Source: Marsupella aquatica (Eukaryota; Plantae; Marchantiophyta). From it: a DNA stretch of 64,000 nt. Shown piece by piece: positions 34,590 to 56,976 of this stretch. Below the pieces are notes generated by a model. The model was not told the origin of the DNA. It did no database searches and worked only from the letters and a program-made list of their open reading frames with translations. Position numbers and translations under genes: made by a program. Positions within the stretch are counted from its first letter, which is position 1, and each line of letters opens with the position of its first letter. The stretch spans positions 9,722,184 to 9,786,183 of the forward strand of contig OZ316895.1 in NCBI GenBank assembly GCA_973895155.1. Reading direction: 5' to 3'.

Positions 34590-34615
34590 AACCCCAATTT
34601 AAGGAAAACCGAACT
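34590..34615 (+). repeat. Left terminal inverted repeat
   Basis: AACCCCAATTTAAGGAAAACCGAACT; 23/26 identity to the reverse complement of 57691-57716. Looser similarity (AATTCCAA..CTAAATATTAT) continues for about 40 bp inward. Confidence 0.9.
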
Positions 34616-34957
34616 TTGGAAATTCCAAAAATACCTAAATATTATTATTTTAATATGACAGCAATTGCCTGTCAACGCTTCCGATTACCACGCTTAAAAA
34701 ATGACAAGAAAAGGGGGCGACATGACGCGTCGCTGCGCGTGATACCCTGAAAATGACTGCAACATCACATTTTAACAACACTAAGATTTGACGCAATCCA
34801 ACTTGACGGGACCAACAGACAACGAATAATAAAAATAGAGAAATAAATCTTTGAGATCCTTTATATATGATAACCCGTTTAGGGAGATTACAAATAGTTT
34901 CTAGCACGACAATACCAATGGGGAGTTTCTCTTGCCGAATATTATTTCGGAAGCGTC

Positions 34958-35651
34958 CTAAACTGGGCGTCTGTTAAACTGCTCTACTAGATATCTATCT
35001 CCATGCCTCTGAATCAAAGGGTCTTCCCATATAGTATGATTATAATCATAATCTCTAAAAAGAGATTTAACTGACCAATCAGGATAACCTATTCCATTGG
35101 CAACGAGAAGCGGCTCAGAAGATTTTGCGAGCTTGCTAAGATACGGAATCAACACGTTAATCAGGAAACAGTCGTCGATCGACCCAAAATATTTGGGCGG
35201 AAATAATGATCCAAAAACAGGATCTAAACAAGCACGAAATGCATCGGATTCGATAAGCATTATATTTTTCTGCAGATACATCTCCGTATAACTTTCAACT
35301 TTATCAAAACACTTCAAAAATATCCGCTTATTTGAGGTCGCCCCATCGCATAAGTAACAATGAGACTCATCCCAAATATACTTAAATGAGGCCATTTCCA
35401 TCGCAGTAAAAATAGACGCTAAAATCTGATCTAAAAGGTTCTTCTTAACTAAGAGATGACCAGATCCCTACGTCGAAATTCTCAAAACAGAATCTCACAA
35501 ATTTGTGAAGCTAAGGCCTTGGAAAAACGTATACATTCCCAATACGAATTCCAGTTGAGACCACCATCAGTCGGGAATGCGGTGCAGTGTAACAGAGTAG
35601 ATGCTCCACATCTAAAACTATGAGCTGAGTTTCTCTGCTACAATGTATCTC
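34958..35651 (-). pseudogene. FCP1/SCP(NIF)-like HAD domain, copy 3 (one stop and one frameshift)
   Basis: After the acceptor at 35652 it reads QLIVLDVEHLL..VFPRP*LHKFVRFCFENFDVGIWSS, then FKYIWDESHC..IFLKCFDKV..NIMLIESD; collinear with copies 1 and 2. Confidence 0.75.
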
Positions 35652-35744
35652 CTGTAGAGAAACACAATACAAGATAAATGAGCCTGTGTGGATGTTGCCA
35701 CGTGAATAGTCGCGTCACGGATTTACAGACAAATAACATATCCT

Positions 35745-36452
35745 CTACACTCTGGCCTTTGATAAGTGACGTCTGTTGAAGTACTTCATAAGAACTTGAT
35801 CAGCATGTCTCTGCACGTACAGATGCTCCCATATATCTTCGTTCAAAGTCCAATCTAGATGTAGATTTCTAATCGACCAGATGGGATAATCCAACTTGTT
35901 AGCAAACGCAAGACAAAGCCCGGAATCTGATAGCTTCAGTAAATGTGGAATGAGAGTATCCCTAAAAAAGACATCATCCAAGGATCCTTGAAACGTCTTT
36001 GTAAACAACAATCCACATACACCTGTCTGGCATGTATGGGATGGACAGGCATCAATCTGGATTATATTCTCTAATCGATAATCTTGAAACATATCACGTA
36101 GTCTGTCCATAGATTTGAAGACAACTCTCTTATAACATTTCTTCACATAACCAAGATGCCAGCAATGATCTTGGGTGAAAACATATCTCAGTTGCGACAG
36201 GTCCGTGATCGACAACATTTCTGAAAGTATCTGATAAACCAGTTTATCCTCGAGGGTAGACCAAACCATCACATCAAAATTATCATAACAGAATTTTAGA
36301 AAATCATGAAGATATGGCCTCGGAACGACACATAGAGATCCGATAAGAATTGCCGTAGTCCACTTGAGCTCAGGAGTATATTTCTTAATATAGCATAGAA
36401 AGTTTTCCACTCCTAAAACTAGAAGTTGACGCGATTTGCTCCACTTAGTCTC
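35745..36452 (-). CDS. FCP1/SCP(NIF)-like HAD domain, copy 2 (open exon; catalytic Asp missing)
   Basis: After the acceptor at 36453 it reads QLLVLGVENFL..VVPRPYLHDFLKFCYDNFDVMVWST..VFTQDHC..VFKSMDRL..ENIIQID. Confidence 0.78.
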   Translation of the reverse strand, partial: ETKWSKSRQLLVLGVENFLCYIKKYTPELKWTTAILIGSLCVVPRPYLHDFLKFCYDNFDVMVWSTLEDKLVYQILSEMLSITDLSQLRYVFTQDHCWHLGYVKKCYKRVVFKSMDRLRDMFQDYRLENIIQIDACPSHTCQTGVCGLLFTKTFQGSLDDVFFRDTLIPHLLKLSDSGLCLAFANKLDYPIWSIRNLHLDWTLNEDIWEHLYVQRHADQVLMKYFNRRHLSKARV

Positions 36453-36722
36453 CTGTAAATCAACAATTCGATTCTCATATTAACCCCTAAACATAACACA
36501 CAAATTTTAAAAATATAAGTAAACGACGAATGTTTACCCGCGCACGGTCGCGTGACTAATGTATCCATAGTTCAATTCTCATATTATGCAATCAATTCAA
36601 CCACGCCACCCGACACGATACTCACATAACAATATAAATAAATCCACACAGCGACGCGACCGGGCGCGTCACTCACAACACAAAGTCAAAAGTATAAATA
36701 AGAATTATAAATAAATAAATGT

Positions 36723-39517
36723 TTACTTTTCTTTGGCTTCCATTTCACGGTCTTTCCTATCTGATAATATTCTCATGAAATCGTCAAACTCTCGTAAATG
36801 GTCAGGATTACCCTAAGTACGAATGGTCACATTTTTCCTCCAAAGATTCGCCTTATCAATATAATCCTTCTGAAGATTGTCTCGAGAAAACTCTGGAATA
36901 CCATATCCCCGAAGTCGCTCATGGAATTTCAACTTCGGATTGAACATATCGCACAGATACGGATATAGTTTTTTTTGAAAATGTGTGTCATCTTCCAGCC
37001 CAAAATACACGTCGGGATACACAGACGAGTAGAAGCTATTTAAGCTCGTCTTATAAGCAGCATCATCCATAATAATCACATTCTCCTTGTCGTAATTGTA
37101 AGTAGTGGGTAATTCCAAAAGCATGAAGAAACTAAAATTTTTAATTTTTTTTACGGTGTTTAGACTGCAATTATTGCTAACTGTAACTGAAACAACATTC
37201 AAAGTTACTAAGTTCCTAAGTTACGAGTAAACTCAGTTTACGAGTTTACTAGTTCACTGCTTTACGAGTTTACGAGTTACGCCTTAAGAGTTGGCGACCC
37301 TGTGATCGTGACATCTTACGACTAGTTCAACGTGACTCCACAATGGATGAAGAGCTCACCTTGAAAGGGAAGGAATGCAAAGACATAGGCGCTCATTACT
37401 GACTTCTCTTCCACCTTACCTCTCAAACTCTGGCCAACTTCAACCGGTACTTCAGAGATGTCAGATGGAGACTTCGACCTTTCTATTCCAGGATGATGAA
37501 TAGTGATAAGTTCCTGTATCATTATCCCCAAGTGTATGCTGCTACCTGTAACAACTATGATGTGATCGGGATGTACAGAGAAGCTCTTCGTATAGATTCA
37601 TGTTATTTGATGAAGAGAATGCCTTTGATGTATCCTGAGAGACAACTGAGGTGCCTACCTTACTCTAGAGGATTCCCACGCCAGGCTGAACTAATGGAAG
37701 TTACCCAGAATTGAACTGTCACGGCAGTGGAGCTACTCGAACCAGAAGACATCCGACAACAAGCTTGAGTAGTCTACGTCTTTTTAGTTAGTTTTAAGAG
37801 TAGTGCATCTTTCCCTATTTTTCAAAATGTGTTATAGAGCTGTAAAAGCTATGAGACTTCTTCAATAGGTAGTCTGTACCTAGGAAAACCTGCTGGCAAA
37901 ATTTCAGAGTTTTCCAGACCAAGAGTAGAAAGTTAAAAATAGTTGAATTTGCTCAGTTTTTAAGTGTACCGGAATACGCTTTTACGCTATACGTTTTTAC
38001 GTTTTTACGCTTTTAAGGGTTTACGGGTTCATACTTAGCCACTTTTCTAGCTTTTCACTTACTGAATTGCTATTTTGACTTTTTGAGGAGTATGAAGAGG
38101 CATGTCTCTTCGACCCTATGACCTCTCACTCTGTAGATTTTTACTATAAGACCTCTCCACCACTAGTGTAGTTTATGGTTAAGTTATACATTTTTGCCTC
38201 TTCTTTGTGTTAAACTAGTTGATCATGAATCTATGAGTTCGAGATCAGGTTTAACATTTGGAGAGACTTACCTCCTTCTTGTGTTTTTATCTATGATTAT
38301 AAACACAGGAAGTAAAATTCCTTTTGTGCAAATCTTTTGAGTTGTAATGACAGATTCCTTGTTGGTGACTCATTGCAATCTCTTGATTTCTTAAAGTTAA
38401 CTCATTGAGTTTAAGCCTTATTGAAATTGATGGATTTTCTTTCATGTTGCTTAGTACCATCTAAATGTTGAAGTAGTCACTCTTTTAGATCTTGTCTGAG
38501 TACCACTTAGAAAGAAAAGACAAGATGTGTTGACGGCATTTTAAAAGGTACTCTAGTAAGCATTTTAGAACTGAAAAGCAATATGGATTTGAATCCTTAA
38601 GTCTTTTCATTTTGACTTATGTCTAAGGAGCAACCTTGGTCAATTCCAGACTCCCTAAGTAGCATACTTTAAGATATTTTCTCTTGTGTTTTGTTAATCA
38701 TTCCTTTTTCATTAATTTATGTTTACATGATGCTGAGATATCATTGAAAACTACTCACCGCTGTGGAGCGATCTTCAAAATACCTTATTAAAGTAATCAA
38801 ACTTGATTACTATGTGTGGAAAACATTTTTAGTTCTTTATTATTGTTTAAATCTAGTAAACCAACCCCATCTTGTTCTTTACGGGAACGAATACCGAGTT
38901 TGAAGACCTATAAATGTGTTTTTGGTTCTTCATAGCAAACTACAATAATCCTTAATATCGGTGGCAATGTCGGAGAGACATTTGACAAATAGGGGAATGT
39001 CATTATTACTCTTACCAATAGGTCGTGTTGATTCTTGTCCCCAGATAAATTTAATATGGCTCAAAACCTCGGGTCGGAGAATCAGCCTTACACATGATAG
39101 AATATTTTGTTTCAACATACACGACCAAATGACAATGTCGTAAAGTTCTGACACCTTCACAAGAAATGTCATTAAGTCAGGCCTTGGATAGAAAACCTTG
39201 TGCATGTGTTTGACACCCCTTGACCGAATAGGCATCCCAGGGCTGCTTTGCTCTGACCAGATAAGTACCCGATTCAGGTCAAAAATTACAAGTCTCTTCA
39301 TTCGAATTACCGGACCTTTCTGTACCGGTGGCCTCTGCGCCGATGGATTAGGCGTCGTCTGTACCTGTGATTTCTGTGCCGAAGGATTTGGAGCCCGTAC
39401 TACCAAGGTCTTTCCCGCCTCCGGGAAATCAGCGGACTTCAGGATTGGTGCCTTCTTTACTGGTGCCTTCTTTATTGGTGCCTTCTTTACTTGATCAGGG
39501 GGTTTCGGGCTAGGTTC
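36723..39517 (-). pseudogene. FCP1/SCP(NIF)-like HAD domain, copy 1, split by a solo LTR; spliced to the Ulp1 exon
   Basis: KRLVIFDLNRVL..YPRPDLMTFL..YDIVIWS..IWGQES..LFVKCL..DIKDY joins in frame to DKENVIIMDDAAYK once the LTR and one TSD copy are removed. In-frame TAG at 36813-36815; the next stop is TAA at 36723-36725. Confidence 0.82.
37097..38944. mobile_element. Nested solo LTR (1848 bp)
   Basis: TGTA...TACA termini with flanks GTAAT/ATAAT (5-bp TSD, one mismatch). Removing it restores the HAD reading frame. Confidence 0.88.
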
Positions 39518-39603
39518 CTGTAAAACATTATAAAATGAAAAATAAGTTTTATAACGCGAACGGTCGCGTGACTATAAAGACAGACTGAAATGAAGTATAA
39601 TAC

Positions 39604-40395
39604 CTGCCCAAGAAGATGGTCGTTCAGCAATTGAATTCCGCCGGCAATGTCAATCATAGTAGCACGTATCCCGGTACCATGGTTGTCTCCGGACGCCGGC
39701 TTTCGGAAGTCCATGTCATATAACAACAAGACAACTTCCCTACGGAATTTTGCAATGTCTGCAGCGGAGAAACTAATTTCGCTGCCTTGGCACAAACACT
39801 TGGCGTATTTCAACGTAAAAACACCACAACTGTACCCGTCACTTTGGTATGGAATATCGTTCCGATATATCCGTTCCCAACCTGATATATCCACCTTGAC
39901 TCCATTTCTCCATAGAATTTTGTCGACGTAATACTGCCCAACGACATCGAGCACCTTAGGATTTTGTCGATTTTGAACTAGAGAATCCAGGTACTCGAAT
40001 CGTTTCTCCTTCGAATAGACAACTGCCAATGACCAATGTTCTTTCCCAACAATGTGAACTGGAAAGACTAGTTTTTCGTATTCATTGATTCTTAACGGAA
40101 AGTCAACTGTCCAAGATGCTCGGTCCTCATCAAAAACGGTAGGACCCATGGAGAGAAGCTCGAAATGGTGTGTTTGGAAGAATTTTACAACCTCTGATTT
40201 TCCAACTCTATTGAGAATCAACTCGATAAAGCTCAAATAAACATTAATTATATCATTGGTAAGCAACTCGCGCGGTCTCAAACACATCATATGTTTCCTC
40301 TTGATCGATTGGTGTAAAAACTTGGTCAATACCTCTTCCATATCCCTAGAAGGATCGAGGCATTGATCTATTTGACTACCCAAATTTTCAAAAAA
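39604..40395 (-). CDS. Ulp1/SENP-type (peptidase C48) SUMO-protease exon
   Basis: LRPRELLTNDIINVYL, LVFPVHIVGKEHWSLAVV (His), EYLDSL (Asp) and YQSDGYSCGVFTLKYA (Gln, Cys). Bounded by an AG acceptor at 40396 and a GT donor at 39603. Confidence 0.92.
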
Positions 40396-40579
40396 CTGCA
40401 AAAAATAGAGAATTCAATACGCCTTCAAATAACGTACTAAGGTTGTAGCCTACGAGTAAACAGAAACAACAATAAATCAATAATAAAATATAATGACAGG
40501 TCCAAAATCCTAACGACAAAGAAAATACTAGCTGCTAGACTAGAAACAAAATCCTTTCAACTTATAGCTTGCGAATGAC

Positions 40580-42604
40580 CTTTGGATTGGGTGGATCCGG
40601 CCTTTTTGCACCGGATTTCTTGGGTGCCTCCTTCGCAGCTATATTGCTAGGAGCTCCCCGGGAGCGCAGTGATCGATCCACCAAACCGGTTTGTGAAGGT
40701 TGGAGAGATGAGGCGGGAAGACCTTCGAATGGTTGTGGTAGTTTATTTAGGTATTTGACCATCTGTGAGTCTGACAAATCAGGTTCCGCAATATCCACTT
40801 CGCTAGTCTCCGGTTGGGCTTCCGAGTGTGTCGTCTCTGGGTTATATCATGGCCGAGACCACGAACCCGGTCGTGTGAAGTCAGACTTTAGTCTCTTCAC
40901 AGTTTGAGCGGATTCAGAAGCCAACTCCGTTCCCAGTTCTTCCACTCGATTCTCACAAAATCGTACATTATTGGTAATTATCTCTAGTCTCGATTCACTT
41001 GCACTCGTCTCCTCTGTAATCAGAACACCCTTCCAGTAATGCACAGCCAAAACTGCCTGGACACGTAGCAGCTCGGGTGAATATTTATTCCAATCCTCCA
41101 AGGAGACTGTACCTAATGGTGGATCGTCAAACTCAAAGTCCGGACGCAGAAAATAGTCTAATATTTTCTTCTTAATTCCAGCGGACGGCGACGAAGGCTT
41201 CCTCAAATTGAGCTTTATTTTAGGTAATCAGTTTGCCTCAGGAATAAGCGAAAGGGCCCTGGCCTTCTCGGCCTCCTTCTTTGCCTCCTGCTTCTCCGCT
41301 TGTTCCTCCTTCTCCGCCTGCTCCTCCTTCTTCTCGGCCTCCTTCTTCTCAGCCTCTTTCTTCTCAACCTCTTTCTTCTTTGCCTTCTCAGCCTCTTTCT
41401 TCTCTGCCTCCTTCTTAGCCTTCTCAGCCTCCTTCTCAACCTCCTTCTTCTCAGCCTCTTTCTTCTCAGCCTGCTCTTTCTTCTCAGCCTCCTTCTCGGC
41501 CTCCTTCTTCTCGGCCTGCTCCTTCTTCTCGGCCTCCTTCTTCTCGGCCTTCTCAGCCTCTTTCTTCTCTGCCTTCTCAGCCTCTTTCTTCTCTGCCTTC
41601 TCAGCCTCTTTCTTCTCAGCCTAGCTCCTTCTTCTCGGCCTGCTCCTTCTTCTTGGCCTCCTTCTTCTCAGCCTCCTTCATCTTCTCCTTCGTCTTCTTG
41701 GCCTCCTTCGTCTTCTCGGCCTCCTTTTTCTTTTCGGCCGCCTTCTTCTTGTCGGCCGCCTTCTTCTTCTCGGCCGCCTTCTTTTTTTCGGCCTCTTTCT
41801 TTTTGACCTCCTTCTTTTCAGCCTCCTTCTTTTTGGCCTCCATCCTTGCCTGCGCCCTCTCCGCTTCCGCCCTCTCCGCCTCCTCCCTCTCTGCCTTCAT
41901 ATTCTGTGACTCTTCTCTCTCCTCCTCCTCGCTCTCGGCCTCCTTTCTTGTGGGTTCCTCCTCCTCGCTCTCGACCTCCTATCTTGTCGGTTCCTCCTCC
42001 CCGCTCTCAGCCTCCTGTCTTGTCAGTTCCTCCTCCCCGCTCTCAGCCTCCTCTCTTGTTTGGCCCTGCCTCCTATCCTCATCCACCCTGTCGGCCACTT
42101 CTCTCTCTGCTTCAACCGCGGCCTGGACTCTCGCTACCTCTGCCAATGCCTCTGCCTGAAGTTTGGCTGTCTCAACTCTCTCCGCTTCAGCTCTTGACTT
42201 CCTCTTTGCGGTAGCTGCCTTTTGAGCTGCCGCCTTCTGCTTCTTGGCTTCTACCTTTTGAGTCTCTTGTCGGGACGCTTCTAGTGTAAGTGCTTCTTCT
42301 CGGGCCTCCTCTTGTCTCACCGCTTCTAGCCGGGCCGCCTCCTCCTGTCTGGCCTCATCATCCACATCCTCCATGTCTTCGCCGGACCCTGTTGTATCCT
42401 CGTCAGTCCCCTCGTCAAATTTATCAACTTGCTGATATTCATCAATTTCATCGGCTTCCTCATTGTCACTCTCTTTTTTGATTTGGTCATCATCATCGAC
42501 ATCGTTCTGCGGCTCGGTCATCCAATCTGGATCTTGGTCGTCATTGACGTCCCCATGCCTGTCGTTCACTTTGTCCTCACCAGTAAAGCCACTTTGGACT
42601 TCAT
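40580..42604 (-). pseudogene. Acidic plus K/E/A-rich coiled-coil exon of the cargo gene, disrupted
   Basis: A D/E-rich stretch, then many AEKKE/AEK repeats. In-frame stops at 41979, 41228 and 40847, and a 1-nt insertion near 41622 (GAGCTAGGCT versus the repeat unit GAGCAGGCT). Confidence 0.75.
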
Positions 42605-42999
42605 CTGACAAAAATAAAATATATAAATAAATATAATACACAGTAAAAACAATGTTCACGCGTATGTTTGCGTGAAGCTCAACAATGTTTTGTTATGTAG
42701 AAGAAGAAATTGTTTAGGGTTTGATAGAAATTTACCTTGGATGGCCCACGAGGGTACTCTGTTGGCCAAATGTACATTCTATCTGAATCTTCCGAGAGGG
42801 AATACTCTTGCAACAATTGATAACAAATATGATCAGGAATATGTTGTTCTTGGAGGACTTCCAAAACATCAGCCTTGAGAGCAGATATGGATGGACTTCA
42901 TTAGTTTATCTATACATTTTTCTGTACTAGCCCGTACTGGGTCAATCAACGACAGCGTTGTATCATTCATCGCAGTGGTGTGTTGTAGGAAACAAGACA

Positions 43000-44462
43000 A
43001 TTCCCCGTGCGTTGTTACGGGGCAGTAATATTTTACATTGGATCCAGCATCCTGTAAAATAAGAAACAGAAATTAGTTTGACCAATATAAATTGATAGTT
43101 CAAAATCCAAATCATCTGAAAAGCTAAACCCCACAATGTAAATCTAAGAACTTACCATTAGGCACTGGATCAAATTCTTTCCTTCGTCGAAGCATATAGC
43201 CCATTCTCCAGATTGGACGAATTGACTAACAATACTTTCAAAGAATGGAGGCATCTTTTCTGGCGAAGTCGTCGATATCTCGCCGCTCTCTTCAAAATCA
43301 ATTATTTTCTCAATCCGATATTTGGACAGCAATTGGAGCTCAAAGACATCCGAGTCGCCCATTGTGCTGAAGGCCGAGATGTGAAAGGCGTATGTTACAA
43401 TAAGCTTCCTTTCCTTTTGCCGCTTCTGAATATAATTGCTATCCACAGCAATGTACTGTGTGTATTTCACTAATTCCCGTTTGATTAAATAAGACTCAAT
43501 GGGAGTGGCCACAATAATAACCACATGGTGTGGTTTAGCCCCTATTTTGCTAGTAGCACGGAATAACCCCTCATAGAATGCGCAATTTGACGGACGCATC
43601 GCTCCCATTGATGAGGAATCAAAATAAATCAAGCTTGCAAGGTTCTTCTCTTCACGTACGTGATACAGTCTGCAAACCCAACATTTTGTATATCCTACAG
43701 GGATCGAAATATCAGCCTCTCACCGACCGGCCGCACTAGTTGGTTTCCTTGACTATCAACTGATTTCTGTATTCCTTCCACCAACCTGTAGAATATCGGG
43801 TCGATCTCTTTCAACAAATTATCATTACTAATATTTACATTTAAGCACTTCTTCAGATAACCACTCAGCGCATCTCTCAGCTGCTTCAGTACCATCTTGT
43901 TGAGCTTAAAGCAATCAATCATTCCTTGGACCCGCAATTTCCGGGCGGCGTTGGTAAGACTTTTCAGCTCGGCCCGGGTGCCTGTATCCCCGTTGAGTTT
44001 ACTCAACAAAAGAATCTCAAACTCAACTTTTGTCTTCTTCTCTACACAGAATTCCTCCAAACTCCTGCCGCTTGTTGACATCACTAGGGCTTCAGAGGAC
44101 TTCCTAGCCTTCACGGATTTCACTTTGATGCTTCTGTTTTTGAGAATAGACAATTTCCCACTCAACATGTACTCCGCTGTCTTTCGAAGAACTTTGTCCG
44201 AGCACCCTTGACAAGAACGGAATGACTTCTTAAGAAGATGAAAAGCATTTGGATTCTTCGCAACCTTGAGGATCTTCTTCTGCAAAATTCCATTGTATAT
44301 AACAAGCTCTCCTTTCCTTGAAAGTTCATAAACTTCCATCCACTTCTTGAATGTTTCGTCCTCCATGGTAAAGAGGAACGGAGCCAACTCTCCAAATTTC
44401 ATTACCTCGTTTTTGCCCATTTGCACCCATGGGCAGACTAAACTTGTAGCCCTCATAAATAC
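43000..44462 (-). pseudogene. Central cargo exons, including a degenerate amino(N6A/N4C)-methyltransferase-like region
   Basis: ORFs 43695-44489 and 43144-43632, with GT-AG introns 44463-44628 and 43052-43155 in frame. LASLIYFD...EKMPPFFESIVSQFVQSGEWAICFDEG..CLMDAGSNV follows beta-class MTase motif order but lacks DPPY and FxGxG. Confidence 0.45.
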
Positions 44463-44628
44463 CTGGAAAATGAGATAACAAAGGAGCATAACAATTCTAA
44501 GATTGACGCGCCCAGTTGCGTGACAAAATTAACTTCATAAATCTGTAAGAAAATGTAATGCATATATCTGTAAGACAATGTAATGCATAAATCTGTAAGA
44601 ATATAATCGACAAGGGTTTGGTCCATAC

Positions 44629-45830
44629 CTTCCAATTAGGATGACGAGAATGTGATCCAGGCCGACCAAATGAGTTCCATATATTACGACACTGTCTGAC
44701 GATGGTGAGAAATTGCCCCTCTTCCATGGATGTTTGATGACAGTGGTTTAGGGCCCTTGATAGTCCCATCAAATGTATATTATTCTCGTTATTGAGCGTT
44801 GCCCAAAACATGACAGCTTCTACTGTCCTGCATGCATCTCGAACATCTTGGCTGACATTAGCGTCGTCTTTCAGCAATTTGTAGGCCATTATTGTGTGTT
44901 GGCCTCCGAGTATCCAAAAATGACTTCTCTTAATGTCCTCCTCTGTTGGCGCTGATTTGTAGGCCGTTCCATTGTAGTCAGCAATTTCGTCGGCTTCAGA
45001 CTGAACCCACTTTATAGGGACTAAGAAGCAGCATCTCTTCTCAAACTTTATAGTTGAATGAGAAAGGAGTGAATTCTTCAGCCTCTCAGTGTAATCCTGA
45101 TTCCACTCTCGGCATTTGATGTGATCTGGTGCTGTTAAATATGTTCACAACACTATATTCCTTGAGGAAACTATCGAACAGAGCACCGACATTCTGTGCG
45201 GTGATAACTTTTGGAAGATTCTCCGCCGTGTATGTTTCAGCCTCGGTCACTGGAATGGGCTTTCCCAAGCGAAATTCCTTCTTGAAAGGAATTCTCTTGA
45301 ACTCAAGGACGTCAATAATATATTGACAAATCAAATCACCAGTTAATCCCCGTGGATTGGAGGGGTATCCCACACTAGTAACCTTTTCCAAGGTGTGTCT
45401 AGCACCTAGGAGATCATCGATTCTCCTCTGATTGAAGGTCACATATTGCGTGCGATCCAAATATATGCTGATGTTGTCATCTTGGTTATCGTCGCTGACT
45501 AACAGAACCAATCCCTCAGTACACTCTTGAACACTCAAGTTCTTCTCAAAGAAGCACCCAAGAATTTTTGAATTCTCCAAAATTGTAGCCTTCTCATTTT
45601 TTGCAACCACAAGACGGAGACTCCCATTCTGAACAATTATTCCAAGTTTGGTTATCTCTGTCGAGTCAAAGAGATGGAGTGTCTTTGTCTCCGTTGTTCT
45701 CTCCCTGATAGATCTTCCTCGATAAGCAAGAATGGATGTCTCCGTGGGCATCACTCTGGTCTTGGCTTTCTTTTGAGCAACCGATTTAGAGGAGTCTCTT
45801 TTTCGCTTTGATGTCACCATTGGATCCATT
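44629..45830 (-). pseudogene. Cargo exon with a basic NLS-like start and a ParB/Sulfiredoxin-like domain (1-nt frameshift near 45116)
   Basis: Starts with SKRKR..KKAK. Correcting one extra A joins ORF 45086-45829 to an open frame reading HQCREWNQDYTERLKNSLL..FLVPI..FWILGGQHTIMAYKLL..LSRALN. Confidence 0.6.
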
Positions 45831-46029
45831 CTGAAAAATACAAATATTGAAAGTCAAACCTTTATTTCAGAATGACAATACGCGCATGGTCACATCGCGT
45901 CGAATTACATTTTAGGAACTAATCAAACCGAATGGTTTCTTTTCTTGAGGTCAACTCGTCAAAATCTATATCTATAAATAACTATGCGACTGAAAAATTG
46001 AAGCACGCGCATGGTCGCGTCGCCCCAAA

Positions 46030-46635
46030 TTACATTTTAGGAATGTATTTCTTGACCCAATCCTTTCGCTCCTTGTCATCTAACCGAATCCAATGGTTTC
46101 TAAACGTGTCAAGCTCGGTCCCATCAAAACCACCAAGAATGTCCAGAGGTGGAAGAAGTTTGATAGATTCTCTATATCTGAATGCTACATTTCGTGCAGT
46201 CAAATGCCTTCCAAGCGATTCATATCCAGGTCTATCAGTGAAATCGTTTGCTACCAAGGTGACCGTCACCCAAGTACTACTATAAGTAACTATATGATGC
46301 CACTTCTTACTGACTGTTCGAATGGCGATCAAGTCCATGACCCGTTTTTTAATCGCATTATCTGACAAATTCCCAAGTGAATGGAAAAACACTTTGACTA
46401 AAGGCCAAATATATTTCTCGACAATATCGTCCGGGAGGCCAGGTATCAGTGCTTCTGCATCACTCCATATCATTTTCCAATTTATAACCTTTGCACTTGC
46501 AATTCGATCCATCATCATTTGACGATGAGATTTTTGATTCATGTCAAAGGACTGCAACATCATATGGAAAAGATTAAGAAAGGGAACCTGTCCATCAGGA
46601 ACTGGAACCACCAAGATTCTGAGTAAATGTACCAA
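46030..46635 (-). CDS. F-box-like repeat 3
   Basis: LIPGLPDDIVEKYIWPLV...LIAIRTVSKKWHHIV. Confidence 0.7.
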   Translation of the reverse strand: MVHLLRILVVPVPDGQVPFLNLFHMMLQSFDMNQKSHRQMMMDRIASAKVINWKMIWSDAEALIPGLPDDIVEKYIWPLVKVFFHSLGNLSDNAIKKRVMDLIAIRTVSKKWHHIVTYSSTWVTVTLVANDFTDRPGYESLGRHLTARNVAFRYRESIKLLPPLDILGGFDGTELDTFRNHWIRLDDKERKDWVKKYIPKM

Positions 46636-46756
46636 ACCTTTCGACTAGAAGAAGTCGCTCTTCTTCATCTAAATAGTCATATCTGTCACTAAATAATAAC
46701 ACGTCGCCGCAACTAGTAGTCCCAAGAATGGGTATTTCTAGGAGCAGAGAGATATC

Positions 46757-47161
46757 CTATCGAATAACTCGATAGACTGAGTCAAATTCCAAATCCTCAG
46801 TCTCGGGTATGTAGGAAAGTGCGTCATTTGCGTTATCGACCATCCGATTTGCTTGTTTTAGGCTAGCCCATAACTTGGTATTCGTAACTAGAAAGTCCCA
46901 CTTCTTGCTACACGCTCCAAGCCGGATAAGGTCTCGGACCCGAGCCACAACCAAATCGTTTTTGGTAAGTCGATATCTACTCAATCCTTGAATTGAAATA
47001 AAGTATTCGTATAATATTGGCCATATTCTCGAAATGACCAAAACATCTGGTAATCCTCCTATGAGACTAGAGGAGGTTTTATCGAGCATGTCCCAGATAT
47101 CTTTCTGTTCCCTTTCATGAGATGAAAGAAAATCTTGAGCCAGATTGAGGAGTTCGCTCAT
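46757..47161 (-). pseudogene. F-box-like repeat 2 (the TAG at 46757 looks premature)
   Basis: LIGGLPDVLVISRIWPIL...LIRLGACSKKWDFLV. Paralogous sequence (KYPFLG; FSDRYDYLDEEER) continues beyond the stop. Confidence 0.68.
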
Positions 47162-47222
47162 CCTGTTGTTATCAAATCACAAAACATTGTTAGAAGTTGT
47201 CTCACGCGCCCGGTCACGTATG

Positions 47223-47771
47223 TTAACAACTAGCATTTAGGTCATCCTCAAGGTACCCAACTTTGTGGCATCTTATTGTAAACTGCCATTTTTCAACTGG
47301 GTGAAGAGCATCGTAGGTCTTCGTAAATAGTTCTCTAAGAACGCTGGACATCGACCCCAGGAATTTAATTCTTGGGTATTTCTTGAAGAAACTTTGCACA
47401 GTCGATGAGAGAGACTCATTTGGGATCGATTTAGCAGTATGTCTTGGGAAATCTAAATCTAATAAACTCAACTTGATTATACCCAATAGATAGGTATTAC
47501 CAACAAGGTGGCGCCATCTGCAACACATCGAAGATAGTCCAATCAACTCATTCAATTCCTTTGTTGAGAAATTTCCTGCATTAGCCAAGCAATTAAAAGA
47601 ATCCTTGATTCGAGGCCAAATCAATTCCGCGACAATGTTATCTGGAAGTCCAGGTAATAGTGTCTCAACAAAGACAGAATATCCCTCCATTAGGCCATCT
47701 TGGGTTTTGTCGAGAATGTCAAATATGGGGCAGAGATATTTGAAGCTCTCAAGACCAGGTTCCCCCATCAA
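47223..47771 (-). CDS. F-box-like repeat 1
   Basis: LLPGLPDNIVAELIWPRI...LIGLSSMCCRWRHLV. Confidence 0.7.
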   Translation of the reverse strand: MMGEPGLESFKYLCPIFDILDKTQDGLMEGYSVFVETLLPGLPDNIVAELIWPRIKDSFNCLANAGNFSTKELNELIGLSSMCCRWRHLVGNTYLLGIIKLSLLDLDFPRHTAKSIPNESLSSTVQSFFKKYPRIKFLGSMSSVLRELFTKTYDALHPVEKWQFTIRCHKVGYLEDDLNASC

Positions 47772-48033
47772 TGAACCTCTATTTTGATTTGTGATGCGAC
47801 TGGTCGCGTCAAATAATCAAAACGTTTCCTTCGGTCACGGAACTAACTATAAGAGGTCTAACGGGCATGCGACTGGTCGCGTTAACTGCACCTAACATGC
47901 GACTAGTCGCGTCACCTAATCCTCGGAAATCTCTAAACCTCCCGTGTGGAGATCTACCTCACACGCAACTGGTCGCGTCAAAAGATAATCCAAAATTGAT
48001 CGAACAACAAACCAGGAGTAGTCACAATATCGA

Positions 48034-50708
48034 TTGATACCTGTACGGACTGATAAATCCAAATGCGAACATGGAATTATTAAAGTGAGATACATTCATG
48101 CAAAGATATATTTATTAACTGGATTCAGGCAGACCAGTATTGAGTGTATTCATTTAGATAACAGGCGATCAATGGGATTCATTCATAATTATAAGCAATC
48201 ATAACATTCATGAAGTTTCCAATATTACTATTCAGATGTTAGCACGCTATGATTGTGAAACAATCATATGTCAGAAGTTTTCATATTGCAAAGAATTCAG
48301 TTTAGCATGATTCACAGAGCATCGGTCAGTTAAAATTATTAAATTGTACAGGTTGCTGCTGGTTGTTGAGTCGATTGATATGATTCAGTGTAATATAATA
48401 AGATGAGTCAATTGCACAGCCTGGAAGTTGTATGACATCGTTAATATGATCAGGTTATATTTGAGTTGGCTTGTATGATTCAGTCATATTTGAGTTTACA
48501 GACATAAACTGCATCAAACTCAGCTTAATGATCTGTAGAATGATCTCAGGAAAAGTACCTGAATTCTGACAAATTGATCGATGTAATTGATCGATGTAAT
48601 CGTCTGAGAGATAGAAATTAATTTCCACTTAAAGACCTTGCTGCGGCATTCCAGAAAGAACGTATAAGATTGAAATCCCATATTGATGTATTAAAGATAG
48701 AAGCTAAGCGAATATCTCGAGGTAAACAGTTCTTCCACTAAAATTGCAATCAAGGCGGCAAGGAACTCACGATCTCGAGGTAAACAGCCACTTCTAGAGA
48801 TAGAATCATACGCTGTCGGTAGAATGTTGAGAATGAATTAAAGCATAAACCTGATCAATGAAAGAGCTGAAACAAACTTGATGAATGAAACGATCTGAGA
48901 CAGGCTGCCGAAAATGAGTTCGAGCTGCTGGAACAAGCTAAAATTTGCTGGTACAAGCTGATACGAGCTTATACGAGCTGATACAAGCTGAACACGAGCT
49001 GAAACTCTCGCAACTTCAGAGCTCCAAACAAACAAGTTGTGACGAACCCAAGAAGCCCTTCGAACAAACCAGAAGCCCTTCAATTGAGCAAACAAGAAGT
49101 GAATATGAGATGTGAGATCGAGCTGAAGCGCGCCAACCACCTCCGGACCACAACAAATGAGAGCTCCTGACCACAATGAACGATCGAGCTTCGGACCACA
49201 ATGAATGAATGATCGAGCTCCTGACCACAATGACCGAGCTACAACAAACGAAATGGGGCGAACGAGAGCAGGCACGTGAAGGTCCTATGGAGCTGGCGCG
49301 GGAGACAACAACAATGAACGAGAGAAATGACAAGAAGTGAACAACAATGAACTCGAGACCGTGTGCGCCGTCACTAAGTAATGCGAATTAGGATAACCAT
49401 TTTAACATAACCCTAATAAGCCTACACATCCTACGGATCAAAAGGTTCCGGATGATCTCCGTACACCTTCCTAAGACTCAATCAGTACGAAGTAGGCAAT
49501 CGTGAAAAGAAGATTACCGGAATCTTCTTGATTGGCCGTACTCAACGAGATTTTAGTTGGATCGCCAATTTGAAATTTAAACCGGTAATTATGCAGTTGC
49601 GATAGATTTTGGTAGTGGAGACCCCCGGATCCGGATCCATATCTCCACTCTCTACATCATGCCAATTCAAATTTGAGTATCGAGCCAATTGAAATCCAAA
49701 CTCCTGGATAACGTAAAAAGATTCTCACGATCGGAGTGAATCGATATTCAAAATCAATCCATTTTGGAAGTGGACAATACCAGATCCGTATGTCCACTCG
49801 CACGTTGAATAGCAACTCAATTCAAAACTCAAGAAAGTATCGTGCCAAATCCTAATTCCTGAACAACATACAATGATTCTCACGACTGGAGATTGAATCA
49901 ATTTTCAAAATCAAAACCAATCCAGATGAACACATCCTTCATGGAGTCAGACTACTCTCATCGTTCACGGATCATTCTTCATTTTCAGTTTCTCCTGACT
50001 AGCGGAACTCTCAACGGACGCTGATCCAAGGAAAATTTGAGGTGGAGCTCATTGGATCATTCGACCATTCCAGCCAGGGCGGGGCTCATGCAAGCAACTC
50101 AGGCGCAGTTCATTGTATGACATTCTAGGGAAGGGCTCAACCGACCCTAGCGTAGGAGTTCTGGCGGAAGCGAGACGACAAAGTTATAGGATCTCTATAG
50201 TCATCCTCGCTTATTCGGAGCATTCTAGTGGACCAACAAAGAGCGGCTAGTTAGAAGGCACTTTCTGTTCGAGGATTTTGATCTCGATACGATCAAGAAG
50301 CTTTTATTTTCTGGTTGAGGCATTCGGTCTGGATACAATCACGATACTCAAGGCAATTGGAGTCCGACGGAAGGTTTGCGAGGAGCAGGAGGCTTGGCTG
50401 GGAGGAGGGTTATCGCCATAATTGCTGACGAAGACAACACGCAACTGAACATCTTGTAAGTACGCAATTCCGCAATCAATGACGAGATTAATTGCCTTCA
50501 ATCACGCATTTAATTCATGATTTGACTCCATGAAGTTCTGGTCGAATTCAATCACTCCTCAATCAAGTCCAATCCAGAAGAAATCTATCACCATGAATTC
50601 CTTCTATGAAGTACTATGGTAGTCGTCGATCAAAATGAAATCTTCGCAGTCCAAACTAGTGTGTCTTCCAATTTTACATGGTGGTACATATGGGTATTTT
50701 AACATACA
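48034..50708. mobile_element. Probable nested insertion (~2.7 kb, LTR-like, non-coding)
   Basis: Flanked by ATCGA direct repeats (48029-48033, 50709-50713); begins TTGATACC and ends ATACA. Has internal GAGCT-rich low-complexity repeats and lacks the dyad motif that clusters on both sides. Confidence 0.55.
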
Positions 50709-51439
50709 ATCGACTCTAGCGAATTAGCCATAATTTACTTTTATATTGAAAGTCTTCGTTTCATCACGCGCCTAGTCGCGTGATTGTTTTAGAGGAGAGG
50801 ATATACTCTCCACTCTTAAATCTAATCGCGCTCCATTTCTGAGATCCGATTAATCTCTATTTATTAGTTACTTTACTTAGTCATTGAGTAGAACTCCACG
50901 CGCACAGTCGCGTGACATAACTGACCTCAGGTCAAATTCTCTCAAGAATTGAAGCCAATATCTGTTCGTTTACCGCCTTGTTTGGGGATGACGGGCACGT
51001 TCCCCATTCTGGTTGACTGACCACGCGCACAGTCGCGTCATTCTTCCTGCTGTATTCTAAGGTAATATAGATGTAGTATAGTATCACTCAAGCCTCTGTT
51101 ATTTTGATCATTAGGAAAAGACTCTCAGCCCTAGGTGGTCTAAACTGACTTCATTCAGATGAACCTAATTATTCCAGACGCTAGTAAACATGCAAGGCAT
51201 TCCAAACATACATACATGGAGCACTATTCATGGATTTAATACCCAATCTTGTTCACAGTGCACGCGCACAGTCGCGTCAAAATTATTGTTGTCTTCTAAG
51301 GTAATTTAGATATAGGATCGAATCACTCCAGTCTTAGCGGTTCTCGTTGTTGACTAAGAAGCCATCTTGAGAATCATTTCAACAAGAATTCACTTCATTC
51401 AAATGACTTGAATTATAGTAGAAGCCAGAAAACATAAAT

Positions 51440-52217
51440 GACCATTCTGGAATATTTTTTCGTCGATTACCAAAAAAGACTACATCCATCCCGAAGGACT
51501 TCGAATGTGGAATCCATTTCCATTGAACTGATTCCGTTAAAATATATCCCTACGGGATTAAATCTAGCTACATCGTATCCCTACCGAGTTCTAACTTGGA
51601 CTACGTTTTACTCAAATTCAATAAGCTCTAGCCTTACATCGAGTCAATCATTCCACGAAGATGGCATCCACTCATCCGTGTCTGGCGTGGATTCGCCAGA
51701 ATCCAAGAATGCCTCCTTTGCCCAAGCTCTATGGTCCATAAATTTGCGTGCGTTGCTCGGCTTCCTCCTTCTGTAATACAGTTCACAATCTTCCTTCATC
51801 TCTAATTTCCTTTTTGTAGTTGCGTCCACGTTCTTGGCCTCCTTCTTGACTTTCTTAGCATCAGCTGCTGCCTTGACCGTAATAGAATCGACGCGTACTT
51901 TGGCCTTCAACTTTTCCCCGGATTCCATCTTTGGATTCGACACGGTTGGATTGCTCTCCATCTTATCTTCCGTCATCAAATGTGGCGAACAGTGGGTTCT
52001 CACAAAAAATTTGACCTCTAGATGTAGTCACCGCAAACATGATATCACATCGCTTACACAATCTGAAAGGAGTACCACGATAGATAGAATCTTCTGCATT
52101 GTCTGTTGGAACATCCACATTCTTCAAGCTCACCGGCTTAGCCATCCCTTCAAGCAAGAGATGCGGACCGAGACTAAGAATTTGGAGTGAGAGGAAAGAC
52201 TCTTCTATTGGGAGCAA
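51440..52217 (-). pseudogene. Decayed first ORF/exon of the leftward cargo unit
   Basis: Overlapping ORFs 51963-52217 (CKRC..C) and 51644-52003 (K-rich) run on into stop-interrupted coding-like sequence. No family recognised. Confidence 0.4.
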
Positions 52218-52344
52218 AGGAAGGGAGAGCTGATGTGCGATTACATTATCCAGTAACCAGAATGTTCAATGCATGGGGAATGGGCAGTTTAGACATCATC
52301 TCAATGCTTTATAGTCTTTACTCTTCACTACTGTGGATATTGTC

Positions 52345-52527
52345 AATTAAGTGGCATGAATGTAGGGCGGAATCTAGGTTGGTTTCTAGAAGAGAGTAAT
52401 CATCTATCAATTCAGTGGCACGGATGTAGCGCGGCATGTAGGATGGTTCTACAATAGAATAACCGTGTGTCAATTAAATGGCACGAATATAGGGCGGAAT
52501 CTAGGGTGGTTTCTCGAAGAGAGTAAA
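52345..52527. repeat. Three diverged ~60-bp tandem repeats in the divergent spacer of the transposon
   Basis: CAATT(A/C)A(G/A)TGGCA..(A/G)AT(G/A)TAG(G/C)GCGG..T(C/G)TAGG.TGGTT occurs three times. Confidence 0.75.
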
Positions 52528-52714
52528 CGTCAGACTGGCGCGGAATAGAATTGGCTGCAAGCTAAATTGTCGTATAATTATGGCTTTAATTTCACTGTCG
52601 GCGACTGGCCCGGAATGTACTGATTGTTAGTGATGTACTGGAATGATTATGGGGTTCTCAGTAGATACTGACTGTCGAGTGTCCACTCAGTGGTACTGTC
52701 CACTCAGTGGTGTA

Positions 52715-53322
52715 TCTTATTATAAATTGCAATCATATCTTACTTATGAATCGCCAACTACGAGCTAGAGTTTGGGCCTAAGCTTCTAGCTTCTAGGTTT
52801 TAGACCCTATGGGAAATAGGAATCTATAATGTTGAATCGGTCATGGGCTAGCCTAAGGGTGTCCCACACATTTTCAGGCTGTGTCCACCCGAACCTAACT
52901 CGGGCGACTGCAAAACTCTCCCGGCCCGATATTTGAGTCCCCCAATAGGAAAACCACTTCACGCACAGCGCCGCAACACAACTCATTGCTAACTACCCCA
53001 GCAAATATTGGCCCGAGTATACCTAGTTTCGGCTGCCCATAAGGTCAGATTTTTCCCCATATCTGAGACGCCCTAATAATGCTTGTGAAGAGGTCAGTCG
53101 TGTCATTGAGGGTCTCCCCCGTGTCTTTGGCAAGGGCCTCCCACTCCCGTGCCTTCATTATGGACCCCCCCTTGGGATATATATTTTTGAGCGATGCGTC
53201 GCCCTCCCCTCGGTCCCGATGCGCTCGCTCCTTCCTCTCGCCCTCCGCTCCATAAATGGCCTGGCCCGACTCCTTATGGGCCGGCCCTCCTTGCACCCTA
53301 CAACGCACGAGTATAGGGCTTG
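52715..53322 (+). mobile_element. Nested non-autonomous Helitron-like element
   Basis: Starts A|TCTTATTATA (less certain) and ends ...CAACGCACGAGTATAGGGCTTG|T. The 3' ~75 bp match the reverse complement of 13066-13140. Confidence 0.58.
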
Positions 53323-53518
53323 TTCCACAATAGAATGTTACGGAAGAAGCATGACGCGACTGGTCGCGTAATGGATTGGTTCATACGGCTACTAAGTCCT
53401 CAAGAAGCATCACGCGACAGGTCGCGTGCAGTACTTTGTCCTTACTTTGGTAGTTGACGGCCGTGACAGGACAGCACGCTTATAGTCATATTCGCTATTG
53501 TGCAGGATCATAATTAGT

Positions 53519-56500
53519 ATGGTGACATCGACAGTCTGGATCAGGGAAGGCGGACAAGTTATTATAGGCATCCGTGAAAAACAAGTTGGAAAAGGTCGTG
53601 TGATAAGTCTTGATCCTTCCAGGGTTTGTCACAATGTCACATAGTTCTTCTTCTATTGGAGGAAGTTTTTGACGAGACTATTCAATGCCGAGATGGCAAA
53701 CTTTTGAAGGACATGATTGGGGGCTACCTTGTATGGGAAAGGAATCAACTTTTTCAAGCTCCCATGGAATCGGAGGATTTGTTTGGCGAGGTTGGTGATG
53801 ATCAAGATCCAGTTGAGAAAAATTATGTTGGGAACCACCATAATGAGAGTCGGTCTCGTGTGGAAATAGTTTTACCAAAGGCCTTGTGGATGGGCATGCC
53901 TATAAAGGTGGTGGATGAGAACAAGTTGATTTTTGCAGTGGCAACTATACATGTTCTAGATCCTATAGTCAAGCTTGGGGATGTCACCCTTGGGAATACA
54001 CATGTGGGAATTCTGATCAACAATTTTGTTGAGGGAGCTACGGTTGACCATCTGAAGCATAGAGATTGCTTAAAAGCTTGGTCGATAGACCAACTCATTG
54101 CCAAGGATGGCAACTTGTTGTCTTTCCACAACATTAGGCAAGAAGTGGGAGGGAACACATCTCCTACAAGTGGAAAGCGGTCCTACGTCCATAAAACTAG
54201 AAAAAGAAAGAGTCCATCTTCCCAGACATCTAGAAGAGACACATCTCTGGCACGTCAAGATGTGTTGTTGATAAACACAAAGGACTGTTGTAGTGAACAT
54301 TGTTGCCAATATTTGGACCGCAACTTGGCTATGGCAATTAGGCAAAAGTGGTGGTCAAAATCTTTTGCGGAGCGCAAGGAGGAGGAGGAAATCAAGGCTA
54401 TAAAAAATACAATACACTTGGGTACGGGCAAAAGGATTCTAGTAGTGGAGGGCAAAGTATTGTGCTTGGAGGCATGGAGAATCATTCATTCAAGAGGAAA
54501 GACTCAATTTTATGCCTTGAAGACGACTATGATGGCTGGAATGAACATAGGTACCCATGGTAATGCTGGAAAAAGGCGTATGTCTGAGAAAGTATCTCAA
54601 GCATTCATGTCAATGAAAGAGATTATTGAGGAGGCAGCTGATCATCATCCAGCCAAGTTGAGAACCATGGTAGATAATTCAAGGGTGGATTTGAGGGAAT
54701 TGCCAACCAATCTTACTTGGGAGAATATTATAAACAGGGTTAATGTTGGCAACAAGGAGGCTGGTCTTCCTCCAATTTCCCAACCCACCTTGAGTCATCT
54801 ACATCAGATGTATTTCAGGGAGTTCTTGCGTCACAAAAAGGGCAACAACTTTTCAAAGTGTACAACTTGTAGTGAGTTGCTTCAACGGAAAGCAAACCTT
54901 ACAGGAGCTAAGGAAGAGTTAGATTGCCTAAGGCGTGATGAGGAGGAACATCACCAAGACCACACACAACAAAGAATGTGCTATCATACCTGGAGATATG
55001 AGTCCATCCATCGTCCAAAGGAAGTGTTATGCCTTATTCATGATAAGATGGATCATTCAAAGACATCTCTCCCAAGAATGCCCTTCAATCCTAAGCATGT
55101 GGATGGTGCCCAAAAGTTCCCAATTACTGTCACTGGTATCCTTACTCATGGTCATGGTCCCAAGGCCATAGCCCAATATCATGTTGGAGTGTGGCCAGGT
55201 GATGTCAACGTCACTATTGGGTCAATTGATTCAATACTAAGGATGTTGGAAAACCCAAATCTAATGATCAAATCTCTTGTGGAGGGGCCAGACTCGACAA
55301 GTCTTTTAATTTAAAGACCTCCTTTTTGGGAGAAAAGATATCTTGGAGGCAAGTGTCCTTAGAGCATTTGAGGATGACATTGCCTACATCTCAAGCCTAG
55401 GTACTTTACTCACAATCCTTTTATTATTAATAATATAAGCTCACACACACTAACACTCTACTTTATGTAGTTGTTGCTCCTCCTAGCCAAGGTTTCATTA
55501 ATAGGATTTAAACCCTAAACCCTAAATTGGGGTTTAGGGTCTGACTAGGGTTTTATTTAAAAGCATTCTGAGATTGTTACATTGTGATGCAGCACCCGAG
55601 GCACCAAAGTTCAGGCCCCTTCCACGAGTATTGAAGCTACAACTGGATAATTGTGCCTCAGACAACAAGAACAGATATACGATGGTTTATTTGTCATTGT
55701 TGACGGCAAGGGAGGTGTTTGAAGAGGTTCATCTTGGTTTTATGGTGGTTGGGCATACTCATGAGGACGTTGATGGTATGTTTGGGCATTTTTTAGAGTC
55801 TATGATGCATAACCCCACATACTCATTGCCTGAGTTAATGTCCTTGTTCATGAGAGCAAGGACACCCAATGTAGTCCCACATTTTCTACAGGAGGTCCCA
55901 GATTTCAAAAACTACTTAGCTCCATTCATGTTGAAGGGCCTTGAGGCATTGGTGGGGCATTTAAAACCCAGGCTGTTTAGGTTCTATGTTCGTCATGATA
56001 GTATGCCATGCTTCCAATACAAAATGAAGTCAACTGATCAGGGATGGTTACCCAAGGAAGGTATTGAAATGTGGTCATGGAAAGATGACAAAAGTCCTCA
56101 CATCCCAATTGGGGTGCCCAAACGGCTACCAATGATGGAGTTGAAAATGCTTCCTGAAGTGCTGACAGGGTTGAAGAAGCATGTGTCATTCTTTGAGTTT
56201 ATTCTAAAGCGAACAAAAGAGGAAGAACCAAAGTGACGTTGGACAACTCTCATCAATTATTGGAATGACATTGTAGATACTCTACAGGGTGAGCAGGTGC
56301 AATATGAACCTGAAGGTGCACACAACTTGGAATACGGGTTTTGGCCTTTATCAATATGGAGAGAGCACGTTCCACCAGAATATCAAAATGTGGCATGTGA
56401 GTTGGAGGCAACAATGGATTATGTGGGACCAGCAAAAGATAAACCTTCTGAGAGTTTTAACCCTAGGGTTGATGTTGTGAAGGGCTGTTATGTGTTGGTA

Positions 56501-56881
56501 CGGCCGGACGACTCAAACCTGGATGTTTATCCCGTCCATATGGGGTTAGTTGTTACAGATGTGGTAGAAGGACCAGTGAATGAACAAAACCTTCTTACTC
56601 ATGTATGTGGCGTTGAGTGGTTTAGACCATTTATGGCAAAGAAGCAACGTGGTCAATCAAACTGGTAGCCAAGAGAGCGGTGGGCAGATTCTTGGGATAA
56701 AAAATGTGAACGTGATCCAACTCCAATATACAAGGAAGCTAAGACAATAGATGTTTCCTCTGCCTTGTGGTGTTTCAAAGCACGCAAAGGACCAGTGACA
56801 GGGCTGGTAGGAATTCCAAAGAATGTTGCTGCCAAGGCAAGAGACTATCTCTTGACATGCATAGCAAGTGACAAATCCTAG
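53519..56881 (+). pseudogene. Sola1/DUF7869-type DDD transposase (about 1,050 codons reconstructed; intron 55401-55592)
   Basis: Cys-rich DCCSEHC..VLCLEAW, then FSKCTTC..H, CLIHDKMD (D1), LQLDNCASDNKN (D2) and FMVVGHTHEDVDGMFG (D3). Frameshifts near 53640 and 55309; in-frame stops at 56234 (TGA) and 56666 (TAG); final TAG at 56879-56881. Confidence 0.87.
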
Positions 56882-56976
56882 ACAATAATGAAGCATGTAG
56901 TTTAGCATACAGTTTAAAAGGCAACTCAGAATAGTAGTAGCCAGAGAACTCAAGTTTAGACAAGTCTTATCGTCTA

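Follow-up and report, generated by a model that had tools for sequence, protein, structure and literature searches.

The element and its cargo

The window analysed here is a stretch of 64,000 nucleotides from Marsupella aquatica (Marchantiophyta; contig OZ316895.1), and it contains a giant DNA transposon of Sola1 type (Table 1). The sequence-only reading had placed the locus in a plant transposon, and such an element was indeed found. Inverted repeats at 34586–34650 and 57653–57720 resolve to ATAT + AACCC...GGGTT + ATAT, and the ATAT flanks (34586–34589 and 57717–57720) are taken as a 4-bp target duplication; ATAT being palindromic, the element end is uncertain by 1–2 bases. The combination of TIRs with a 4-bp AWWT-type target duplication is that of Sola1, and the assignment rests on the ends and this duplication, the transposase being matched to DUF7869. 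AWWT targets are given as a Sola1 hallmark (PMC3845634), and Physcomitrella is listed as a carrier of Sola1 (PMC9033089), both in the accessible parts of these sources. DUF7869 is named in no paper found by literature search. The element is multi-copy in sequencing runs X1–X4.

The minus-strand arm carries F-box-like frames, the gene for a predicted ParB-fold protein (hereafter the accessory gene), an acidic repeat frame, and Ulp1 and NIF-like frames. The Ulp1 and NIF-like exons join in phase via a predicted 86-nt intron (39518–39603) that contains one of the 16-bp dyads described below. F-box-like frames 2 and 3 have a dyad just upstream (47204 and 47794), and the dyad at 46005 comes after the stop of frame 1. 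The acidic/EKKEA frame is possibly the tail of the accessory protein; the distant homologue P0019 has an acidic, coiled-coil-like tail. Fusion of the ParB-fold protein to effector domains, as proposed earlier, found no support for Ulp1 and NIF, the predicted junction 42735–42605 being out of phase. No longer homologues were recovered by a profile search limited to 1013–2890 aa; because of this restricted span, fused forms are poorly sampled.

Several other features lie in and around the element. A lysine-rich frame of 127 aa (51644–52027, minus strand), which gave no Pfam match, lies upstream of the dyad cluster 50766–51262. Plant telomere-like repeats (TTTAGGG/CCCTAAA) form an inverted pair at 55508–55540 between two transposase frames, and the core of this pair resembles the start of the element's own TIR. 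The segment 53241–53323 is 82% like 13065–13147 outside the element, inverted, over 83 nt, and is possibly a small nested repeat; an Rfam search of 34500–58000, this inner copy included, gave no match. A second, unrelated inverted-repeat pair at 58372–60320 encloses some 1.9 kb and is likely a non-autonomous TIR element; an end like it recurs at 10749–10782. Judged by eye, an intact single-exon gene at 20444–21916 (plus strand) reads as a plant 6-phosphogluconate dehydrogenase, and 6744–8958 (minus strand) as a broken reverse transcriptase region of LINE type. At 25899–26122, nested inverted repeats (53 and 26 nt) form a long hairpin like that of a MITE or a small-RNA precursor.

Table 1. Features of the transposon, its accessory gene and its dyads, in window coordinates
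Feature	Position	Strand	Remarks
Sola1-type DNA transposon, 23,127 bp	34590..57716		Imperfect TIRs of ~60 bp; AACCC..GGGTT ends
Three further frames, two with NIF-like phosphatase matches, one alike by eye	34958..37220	-	E 9.5e-10, 0.026, none
Ulp1 (C48) protease exon and NIF-like phosphatase exon	38930..40413	-	E 3e-21; 1.9e-7
Long acidic and EKKEA-repeat (coiled-coil-like) frame	40580..42605	-	Broken by stops and a frameshift
Accessory gene, exon 2: helical region of ~250 aa, then alpha/beta region	43156..44462	-	P0002 in frame across both lesions
Predicted intron, GT..AG	44463..44628	-	Contains dyad 44506–44521; predicted from sequence and homologue continuity
Predicted ParB/Srx-fold domain, end of exon 1	44629..45131	-	Motif WILGGQHT; invariant Asn in LSRALN
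35-nt deletion behind the hidden frame	45130..45132	-	Contigs of X1, X2, X3; P0001 in frame
Accessory gene, exon 1, N-terminal domain, ~233 aa	45132..45829	-	No Pfam family; 40% identity to P0001
Three paralogous F-box-like frames	46030..47816	-	F-box E 6e-4, 3e-3, none
Transposase gene (DUF7869), broken in the window copy	53614..56668	+	PF25273, E 9e-36; no dyads; strongly CpG-depleted
23 dyads, consensus ACGCG(A/C)C-YR-G(T/G)CGCGT	34715..57257		Weight matrix
Dyad starts, part 1	34715, 34725, 35700, 36538, 36654, 39554, 40861, 42658, 44506, 45880, 46005, 47204		
Dyad starts, part 2	47794, 47867, 47897, 47963, 50766, 50898, 51023, 51262, 53354, 53412, 57242		

The accessory gene and its lesions

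The open frame that the ORF track had missed is present on the minus strand: it is open from stop to stop over 44497–45144, in the same frame as ORF 44497–44889, and extends upstream of the first ATG of that ORF. Its translation runs ...PDHIKCREWNQDYTERLKNSLL...FWILGGQHTIMAY, or in a longer reading ...APDHIKCREWNQDYTERLKNSLL...FWILGGQHTIMAY...HPNWK. The sequence-only reading had quoted QCREW from this frame; the letters give KCREW, so that the Q-x-R motif built on it is absent, Q having been misread for K. A second frame upstream (45086–45853, minus strand) holds an ATG at 45829, directly preceded by an AG acceptor ending at 45831.

The earlier idea that a frameshift hides the domain was right as to the break between these frames and wrong as to what the break represents. 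The homologue P0001 covers both frames as one ORF, in frame across the break, and contigs of three of the four sequencing runs (X1, X2 and X3) hold 35–36 extra letters at the same place; the frameshift is therefore a 35-nt deletion particular to the window copy. Programmed frameshifting was ruled out, given that other copies keep the missing 35 nt and that the window copy has two further lesions. These lie in exon 2 and comprise a premature TAG (43695–43697) and an apparent 2-nt insertion (43659–43660), across both of which P0002 remains in frame, with loose contig ends at that place. By virtue of the deletion, the stop and the apparent insertion, the accessory gene, which belongs to a multi-copy family, is a pseudogene in the window copy.

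The gene appears to be of spliced type, with a predicted exon layout. The coding part of exon 1 runs to a GT donor (44628), coding restarts at 44462, and the homologues P0026, P0018 and P0019 are continuous across the predicted intron into the next exon. The stretch 44628–44497 of the open frame would then be read-through into the intron (44628–44463), past which the reading is out of frame.

The search of 1.84 billion representatives for homologues returned 29 matches at E 0.001 or better. The only named plant homologues come from the liverwort Calypogeia fissa. P0023, which carries an archaeal MAG label, was left aside as probably due to a binning error, and P0019 gave no phage match. In a metagenome scan, one locus out of 39 pattern matches was a bacterial urease region, which was judged a chance match.

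Fold prediction for the N-terminal domain

A model of the domain built from a 27-row alignment reached a pLDDT of 86.3 and a pTM of 0.70. In a VIA comparison with 48,161 chains, eight of the ten best structural neighbours were ParB/Srx-fold proteins, with PadC first (Z 6.7, rmsd 2.9, 85 aligned) and KorB second (Z 6.5, rmsd 2.8, 84 aligned). Further members of the top ten were SerK (5.4), a designed protein (5.3), Pnob8 ParB-N (5.0), two sulfiredoxins, Atu1540 and SbnI; we take SerK, SbnI and Atu1540 to belong to the ParB/Srx fold class. Among the top 20 of the Foldseek search of BFVD were several viral proteins named ParB, all at E 0.02 or worse. In the Atlas, unnamed eukaryotic clusters came first, followed by a DUF3723 and a ParB_N cluster, both at 0.94; 35% of the members of the ParB_N cluster carry PF02195, and 31% of the fungal DUF3723 cluster carry DUF3723. 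DUF3723 is a Starship cargo family. No paper found by literature search contains both DUF3723 and ParB.

Taken one at a time, none of the structural matches is significant, the best Z being below 8 (called common by the tool) and the E-values at least 0.28 for Foldseek PDB and at least 0.02 for BFVD. At the sequence level, no ParB family came above the cut-off in Pfam, NCBIfam (0 relevant, 27 members) or PDB profile and sequence scans, and a PHROG ParB match (E 0.028) was confined to one of 15 proteins. Through the agreement of many weak matches, the prediction that the domain has a ParB/Srx fold is nevertheless well supported, and the sequence-only reading, which had recognised a ParB/Srx-like domain, agrees with the predicted fold. 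That reading had looked to Foldseek for a ParB/Srx match with a DNA-binding fold beside it: ParB-CDP ranks first in the PDB at E 0.28, and the adjacent DNA-binding fold was not found.

The arginine patch and the regions after the domain

In Caulobacter ParB, the corresponding motif is G101-ERRxR; the R104A variant neither hydrolyses CTP nor spreads, and the whole arginine patch is needed for spreading, according to the accessible part of the report (PMC7053999). The G-Q-H-T-I-M-A of the window protein aligns with G-E-R-R-x-R-A, such that all three arginines are replaced, in a register set by the sequence motif and not by a residue-level structural overlay. The GxxRxR patch of CTP-dependent ParB clamps (ParB, SopB, KorB) is accordingly not present. 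Among 31 proteins, 10 are fragments without the motif; in the 21 motif-bearing homologues the R104 equivalent is always T or S and never Arg, the variants being GGQHT (11), NGQHS (7), DGQHS (1), DGQHT (1) and GGMHT (1). The caveat voiced in the sequence-only reading, that GQHT lacks the usual Arg, thus holds across the family, and comparison of the homologues identifies the loss of the patch as a family trait, not decay of the window copy. This argues against a CTP clamp.

The same reading had also cautioned that no HTH was identified, and none was found in the accessory protein: a five-sequence profile of the helical region, aligned by hhalign with single SopB and F ParB-like sequences, yielded no match, and a PDB profile search with this region was empty. 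Single-sequence folding of P0002, helical region included, gave a pLDDT of 30, and the Atlas matches to its C-terminal part were all below 0.9. The alpha/beta region of exon 2 shows an unconfirmed resemblance to a dead N4/N6 methyltransferase. In an hhalign comparison with an eight-sequence N4/N6 methyltransferase profile, EKMPPFFESIVSQFVQSGEWAICFDEG is set on EKP..DPFAGSG, the SAM-binding segment, with a score of 15.9, which does not exceed the maximum of 16.2 among 60 block shuffles. Pfam gave no match to Beta-class N4C/N6A methyltransferases (PF01555) in the accessory protein. By eye, neither of the motifs (D/N/S)PP(Y/F) and FxGxG is intact; the region, if homologous, is therefore likely inactive. 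Among eukaryotic amino-methyltransferases, some are reported to be inactive and some to be fused to a ParB-type HTH, in the available part of a survey (PMC4738411).

The 16-bp dyads

The many 16-bp dyads noticed in the sequence-only reading are a property of the element. With up to three mismatches, all 19 matches to ACGCGAC-NN-GTCGCGT fall inside 34586–57720 and none in the other 40.9 kb of the window. Simulation of 20 sequences as long as the element gave a mean of 0.15 matches and a maximum of 1, so that the dyads far exceed what chance would give. A weight matrix raises the number inside the element to 23 at a score of 11.5 or more, the first site outside scoring 7.6. With one exception, the 23 dyads lie outside hand-drawn putative exons that cover 52% of the element (P about 1e-6). 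Three are mid-way in short internal introns and others precede acceptors or starts; the stretch 53428–57241 is free of them. The dyads are oriented, the better inner half facing the cargo strand in 13 cases against 3, with 7 ties (p 0.02). In their arms, 14 of the 18 deviations are CpG-type transitions, which implies that the dyads are methylated at times.

In other copies of the element, contig depth peaks on the dyads while the flanks diverge (in X1, about 1200 vs 45), a contrast to be read with the fact that word-seeded contig placement favours conserved stretches. Of 341 positions, 42 are non-spacer dyad positions, and one of the 33 variable places among copies falls in these (P 0.07). These data are no more than suggestive of conserved dyad positions among copies. 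At 45880–46030, 47204–47223 and 35700–35745, a cassette-like layout was also observed: a stop, a dyad within 4–30 nt, an AG acceptor and the next frame. The dyads concerned are 46005, 47204 and 35700, and that at 45880 seems to duplicate the 46005 unit; this layout points to alternative 3' splicing or to units of dyad plus ORF that were duplicated in tandem.

CpG contrast between the two arms

Observed/expected CpG is 0.69–0.99 in 2-kb bins over 34–54 kb and 0.26–0.30 over 54–58 kb. Across codon boundaries, the transposase has a CpG odds ratio of 0.15 and the 12 cargo frames one of 0.73 (p 1.7e-7); C3 use is otherwise equal between the two (p 0.81). A host gene in the window, at 0.75, is like the cargo. 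The contrast fits long-term protection near dyads by a VANC-like binder, with the proviso that arm identity is fully confounded with both CpG depletion and distance from dyads, and that a cargo differing in origin or age would yield the same contrast.

Interpretation

The reading preferred here, which we consider an even call, is that the ParB-fold protein of intact copies binds the element's own dyads without CTP-driven sliding and thereby keeps the dyad-bearing arm unmethylated or expressed. Intact copies would supply the protein in trans; the ParB-fold protein would itself be the dyad binder, presumably dimerising via the helical region that follows the domain. Coverage would come from many sites, one per 0.1–2.9 kb in introns and spacers, rather than from a single loading site, and the outcome may be anti-silencing (VANC-like) or transcriptional control (KorB-like). 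A broader proposal is that, in non-flowering land plants, giant Sola1 elements employ a ParB-fold protein of bacterial origin that no longer uses CTP, together with intron dyads, as self-marking against CG methylation of their cargo; this generalisation is doubtful at present.

Alternatively, the dyads may be cis-regulatory sites for a host factor or another protein of the element, with the ParB-fold protein acting otherwise, for example by scaffolding Ulp1, NIF and F-box partners. Several dyads do precede the acceptor or start of a cargo frame by 35–55 nt, two lie ahead of the transposase, and the search that found no HTH in the accessory protein would be in keeping with another binder. The dyad arms contain CGCG, which is bound by plant CAMTA-type factors. 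However, full dyads are absent from the 40.9 kb of flanking host DNA and also occur in internal introns, and in the algal elements described in print, ParB-like genes occur together with inverted repeats, as far as the accessible reports go. We consider this alternative unlikely.

The sequence-only reading had favoured load-and-spread delivery: a nucleotide-gated ParB clamp would load at the dyads and slide, carrying fused effector domains along the element. For such a clamp speak the CTP-binding PadC, KorB and ParB among the structural neighbours, the parS-like length of the 16-bp dyad, and the conservation of G-Q-H and of the downstream Asn, through which some ligand pocket may survive. Yet all three patch arginines are replaced, with T or S at the R104 equivalent in 21 of 21 homologues, and R104A is reported to abolish both CTP hydrolysis and spreading (PMC7053999, accessible part). 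Delivery over the element is further at odds with the 13:3 orientation of the sites and with the transposase gene, which holds no dyads and shows no protection. With the patch replaced family-wide and no HTH found in the accessory protein, load-and-spread is not supported, and we regard it as decidedly improbable.

It is very improbable that the dyad is an RNA splicing or processing signal in a multi-gene transcript. Its orientation follows the cargo strand (13:3) and at least seven sites lie 35–55 nt upstream of a predicted 3' AG, but the inner positions lose complementarity and would make a poor hairpin. Moreover, the three internal introns measure only 86–166 nt, so that any central site is near the AG; the clusters 47794–47963 and 53354–53412 have no acceptor link; the predicted intron 43052–43155 has no dyad; and Rfam gave no match. 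Binding of the dyads by the transposase as subterminal transposition sites is hardly credible. In its favour, weak dyads occur at 125–135 bp from the left terminus and about 460 bp from the right one; against it, 20 of the 23 are internal, tracking gene structure rather than ends, and those near the termini belong to the more degenerate ones.

Comparison with known systems

The window protein shares with bacterial ParB-parS, KorB and PadC the predicted N-terminal fold and, in its dyad, the parS-like length; it differs in the lost arginine patch and in having no demonstrated HTH, ParA or CTP use. The dyad sequence itself is, we believe, unlike parS, and the xGQH motif presumably stands closer to DGQHR/DndB-type members, which still keep Arg.

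Among eukaryotic transposons, the closest layout described is that of Sola1-1_Ec32 from Ectocarpus, in which a ParB-like plus N4C/N6A methyltransferase gene lies opposite the transposase (PMC12477816). In the accessible part of that report, the likeness extends to a giant Sola1 element (21.5 kb in Ectocarpus, 23.1 kb in the window), a 4-bp TSD, AACC-type ends (AACCG-CGGTT in Ectocarpus, AACCC..GGGTT in the window), a ParB-like gene on the strand opposite the transposase, and a proposal of self-binding and self-modification; it is a likeness of layout and description. The window element differs in its land-plant host, in a methyltransferase-like part that is at best degenerate, in extra Ulp1, NIF and F-box cargo, and in a dyad repeated across introns and spacers, whereas no Ectocarpus motif is mentioned in that part of the report (PMC12477816).

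In red algae, PAG3 of Plavaka (EnSpm) has a ParB-like domain beside inverted-repeat arrays proposed as its sites (bioRxiv 10.1101/2025.02.11.637652). As in the window, the ParB-like N-terminal domain is found by remote homology only and the inverted repeats lie on its own transposon; unlike in the window, the superfamily is another, the effector is a 2OG-oxygenase, and the repeats form tandem arrays by the gene instead of single sites along the element. The concept of a ParB protein with inverted repeats is thus already published for red-algal transposons, in the available portion of that preprint, where self-binding by algal ParB-like accessory genes stands at the stage of proposal. What is new here is a land-plant case, an Arg-less family motif, sites planted in introns and a CpG boundary; literature searches found no report of a ParB-like transposon accessory gene in a land plant.

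In Arabidopsis, the VANC proteins of VANDAL elements recognise motifs within noncoding regions of the element they belong to, from which they remove methylation (PMC10398659). The accessible part of that work shows a likeness in the short noncoding motifs, and the CpG pattern of the window is consistent with such protection. The VANC motifs differ in standing in tandem repeats, and binding and hypomethylation are experimental there and predicted in the window; there is no sign of homology. No transposon other than VANDAL has been described as known to bind its own sequence and modify it, according to the red-algal study (bioRxiv 10.1101/2025.02.11.637652, available portion). If the self-marking proposed above is true, it would be a second plant anti-silencing system, independent of VANC, with a footprint in the element's CpG content. 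With its defined 16-bp site, its protein family and a methylation boundary predicted at ~53.5 kb, the element makes the proposal directly testable in a land plant, which would also reveal the role of a ParB fold after loss of its arginine patch.
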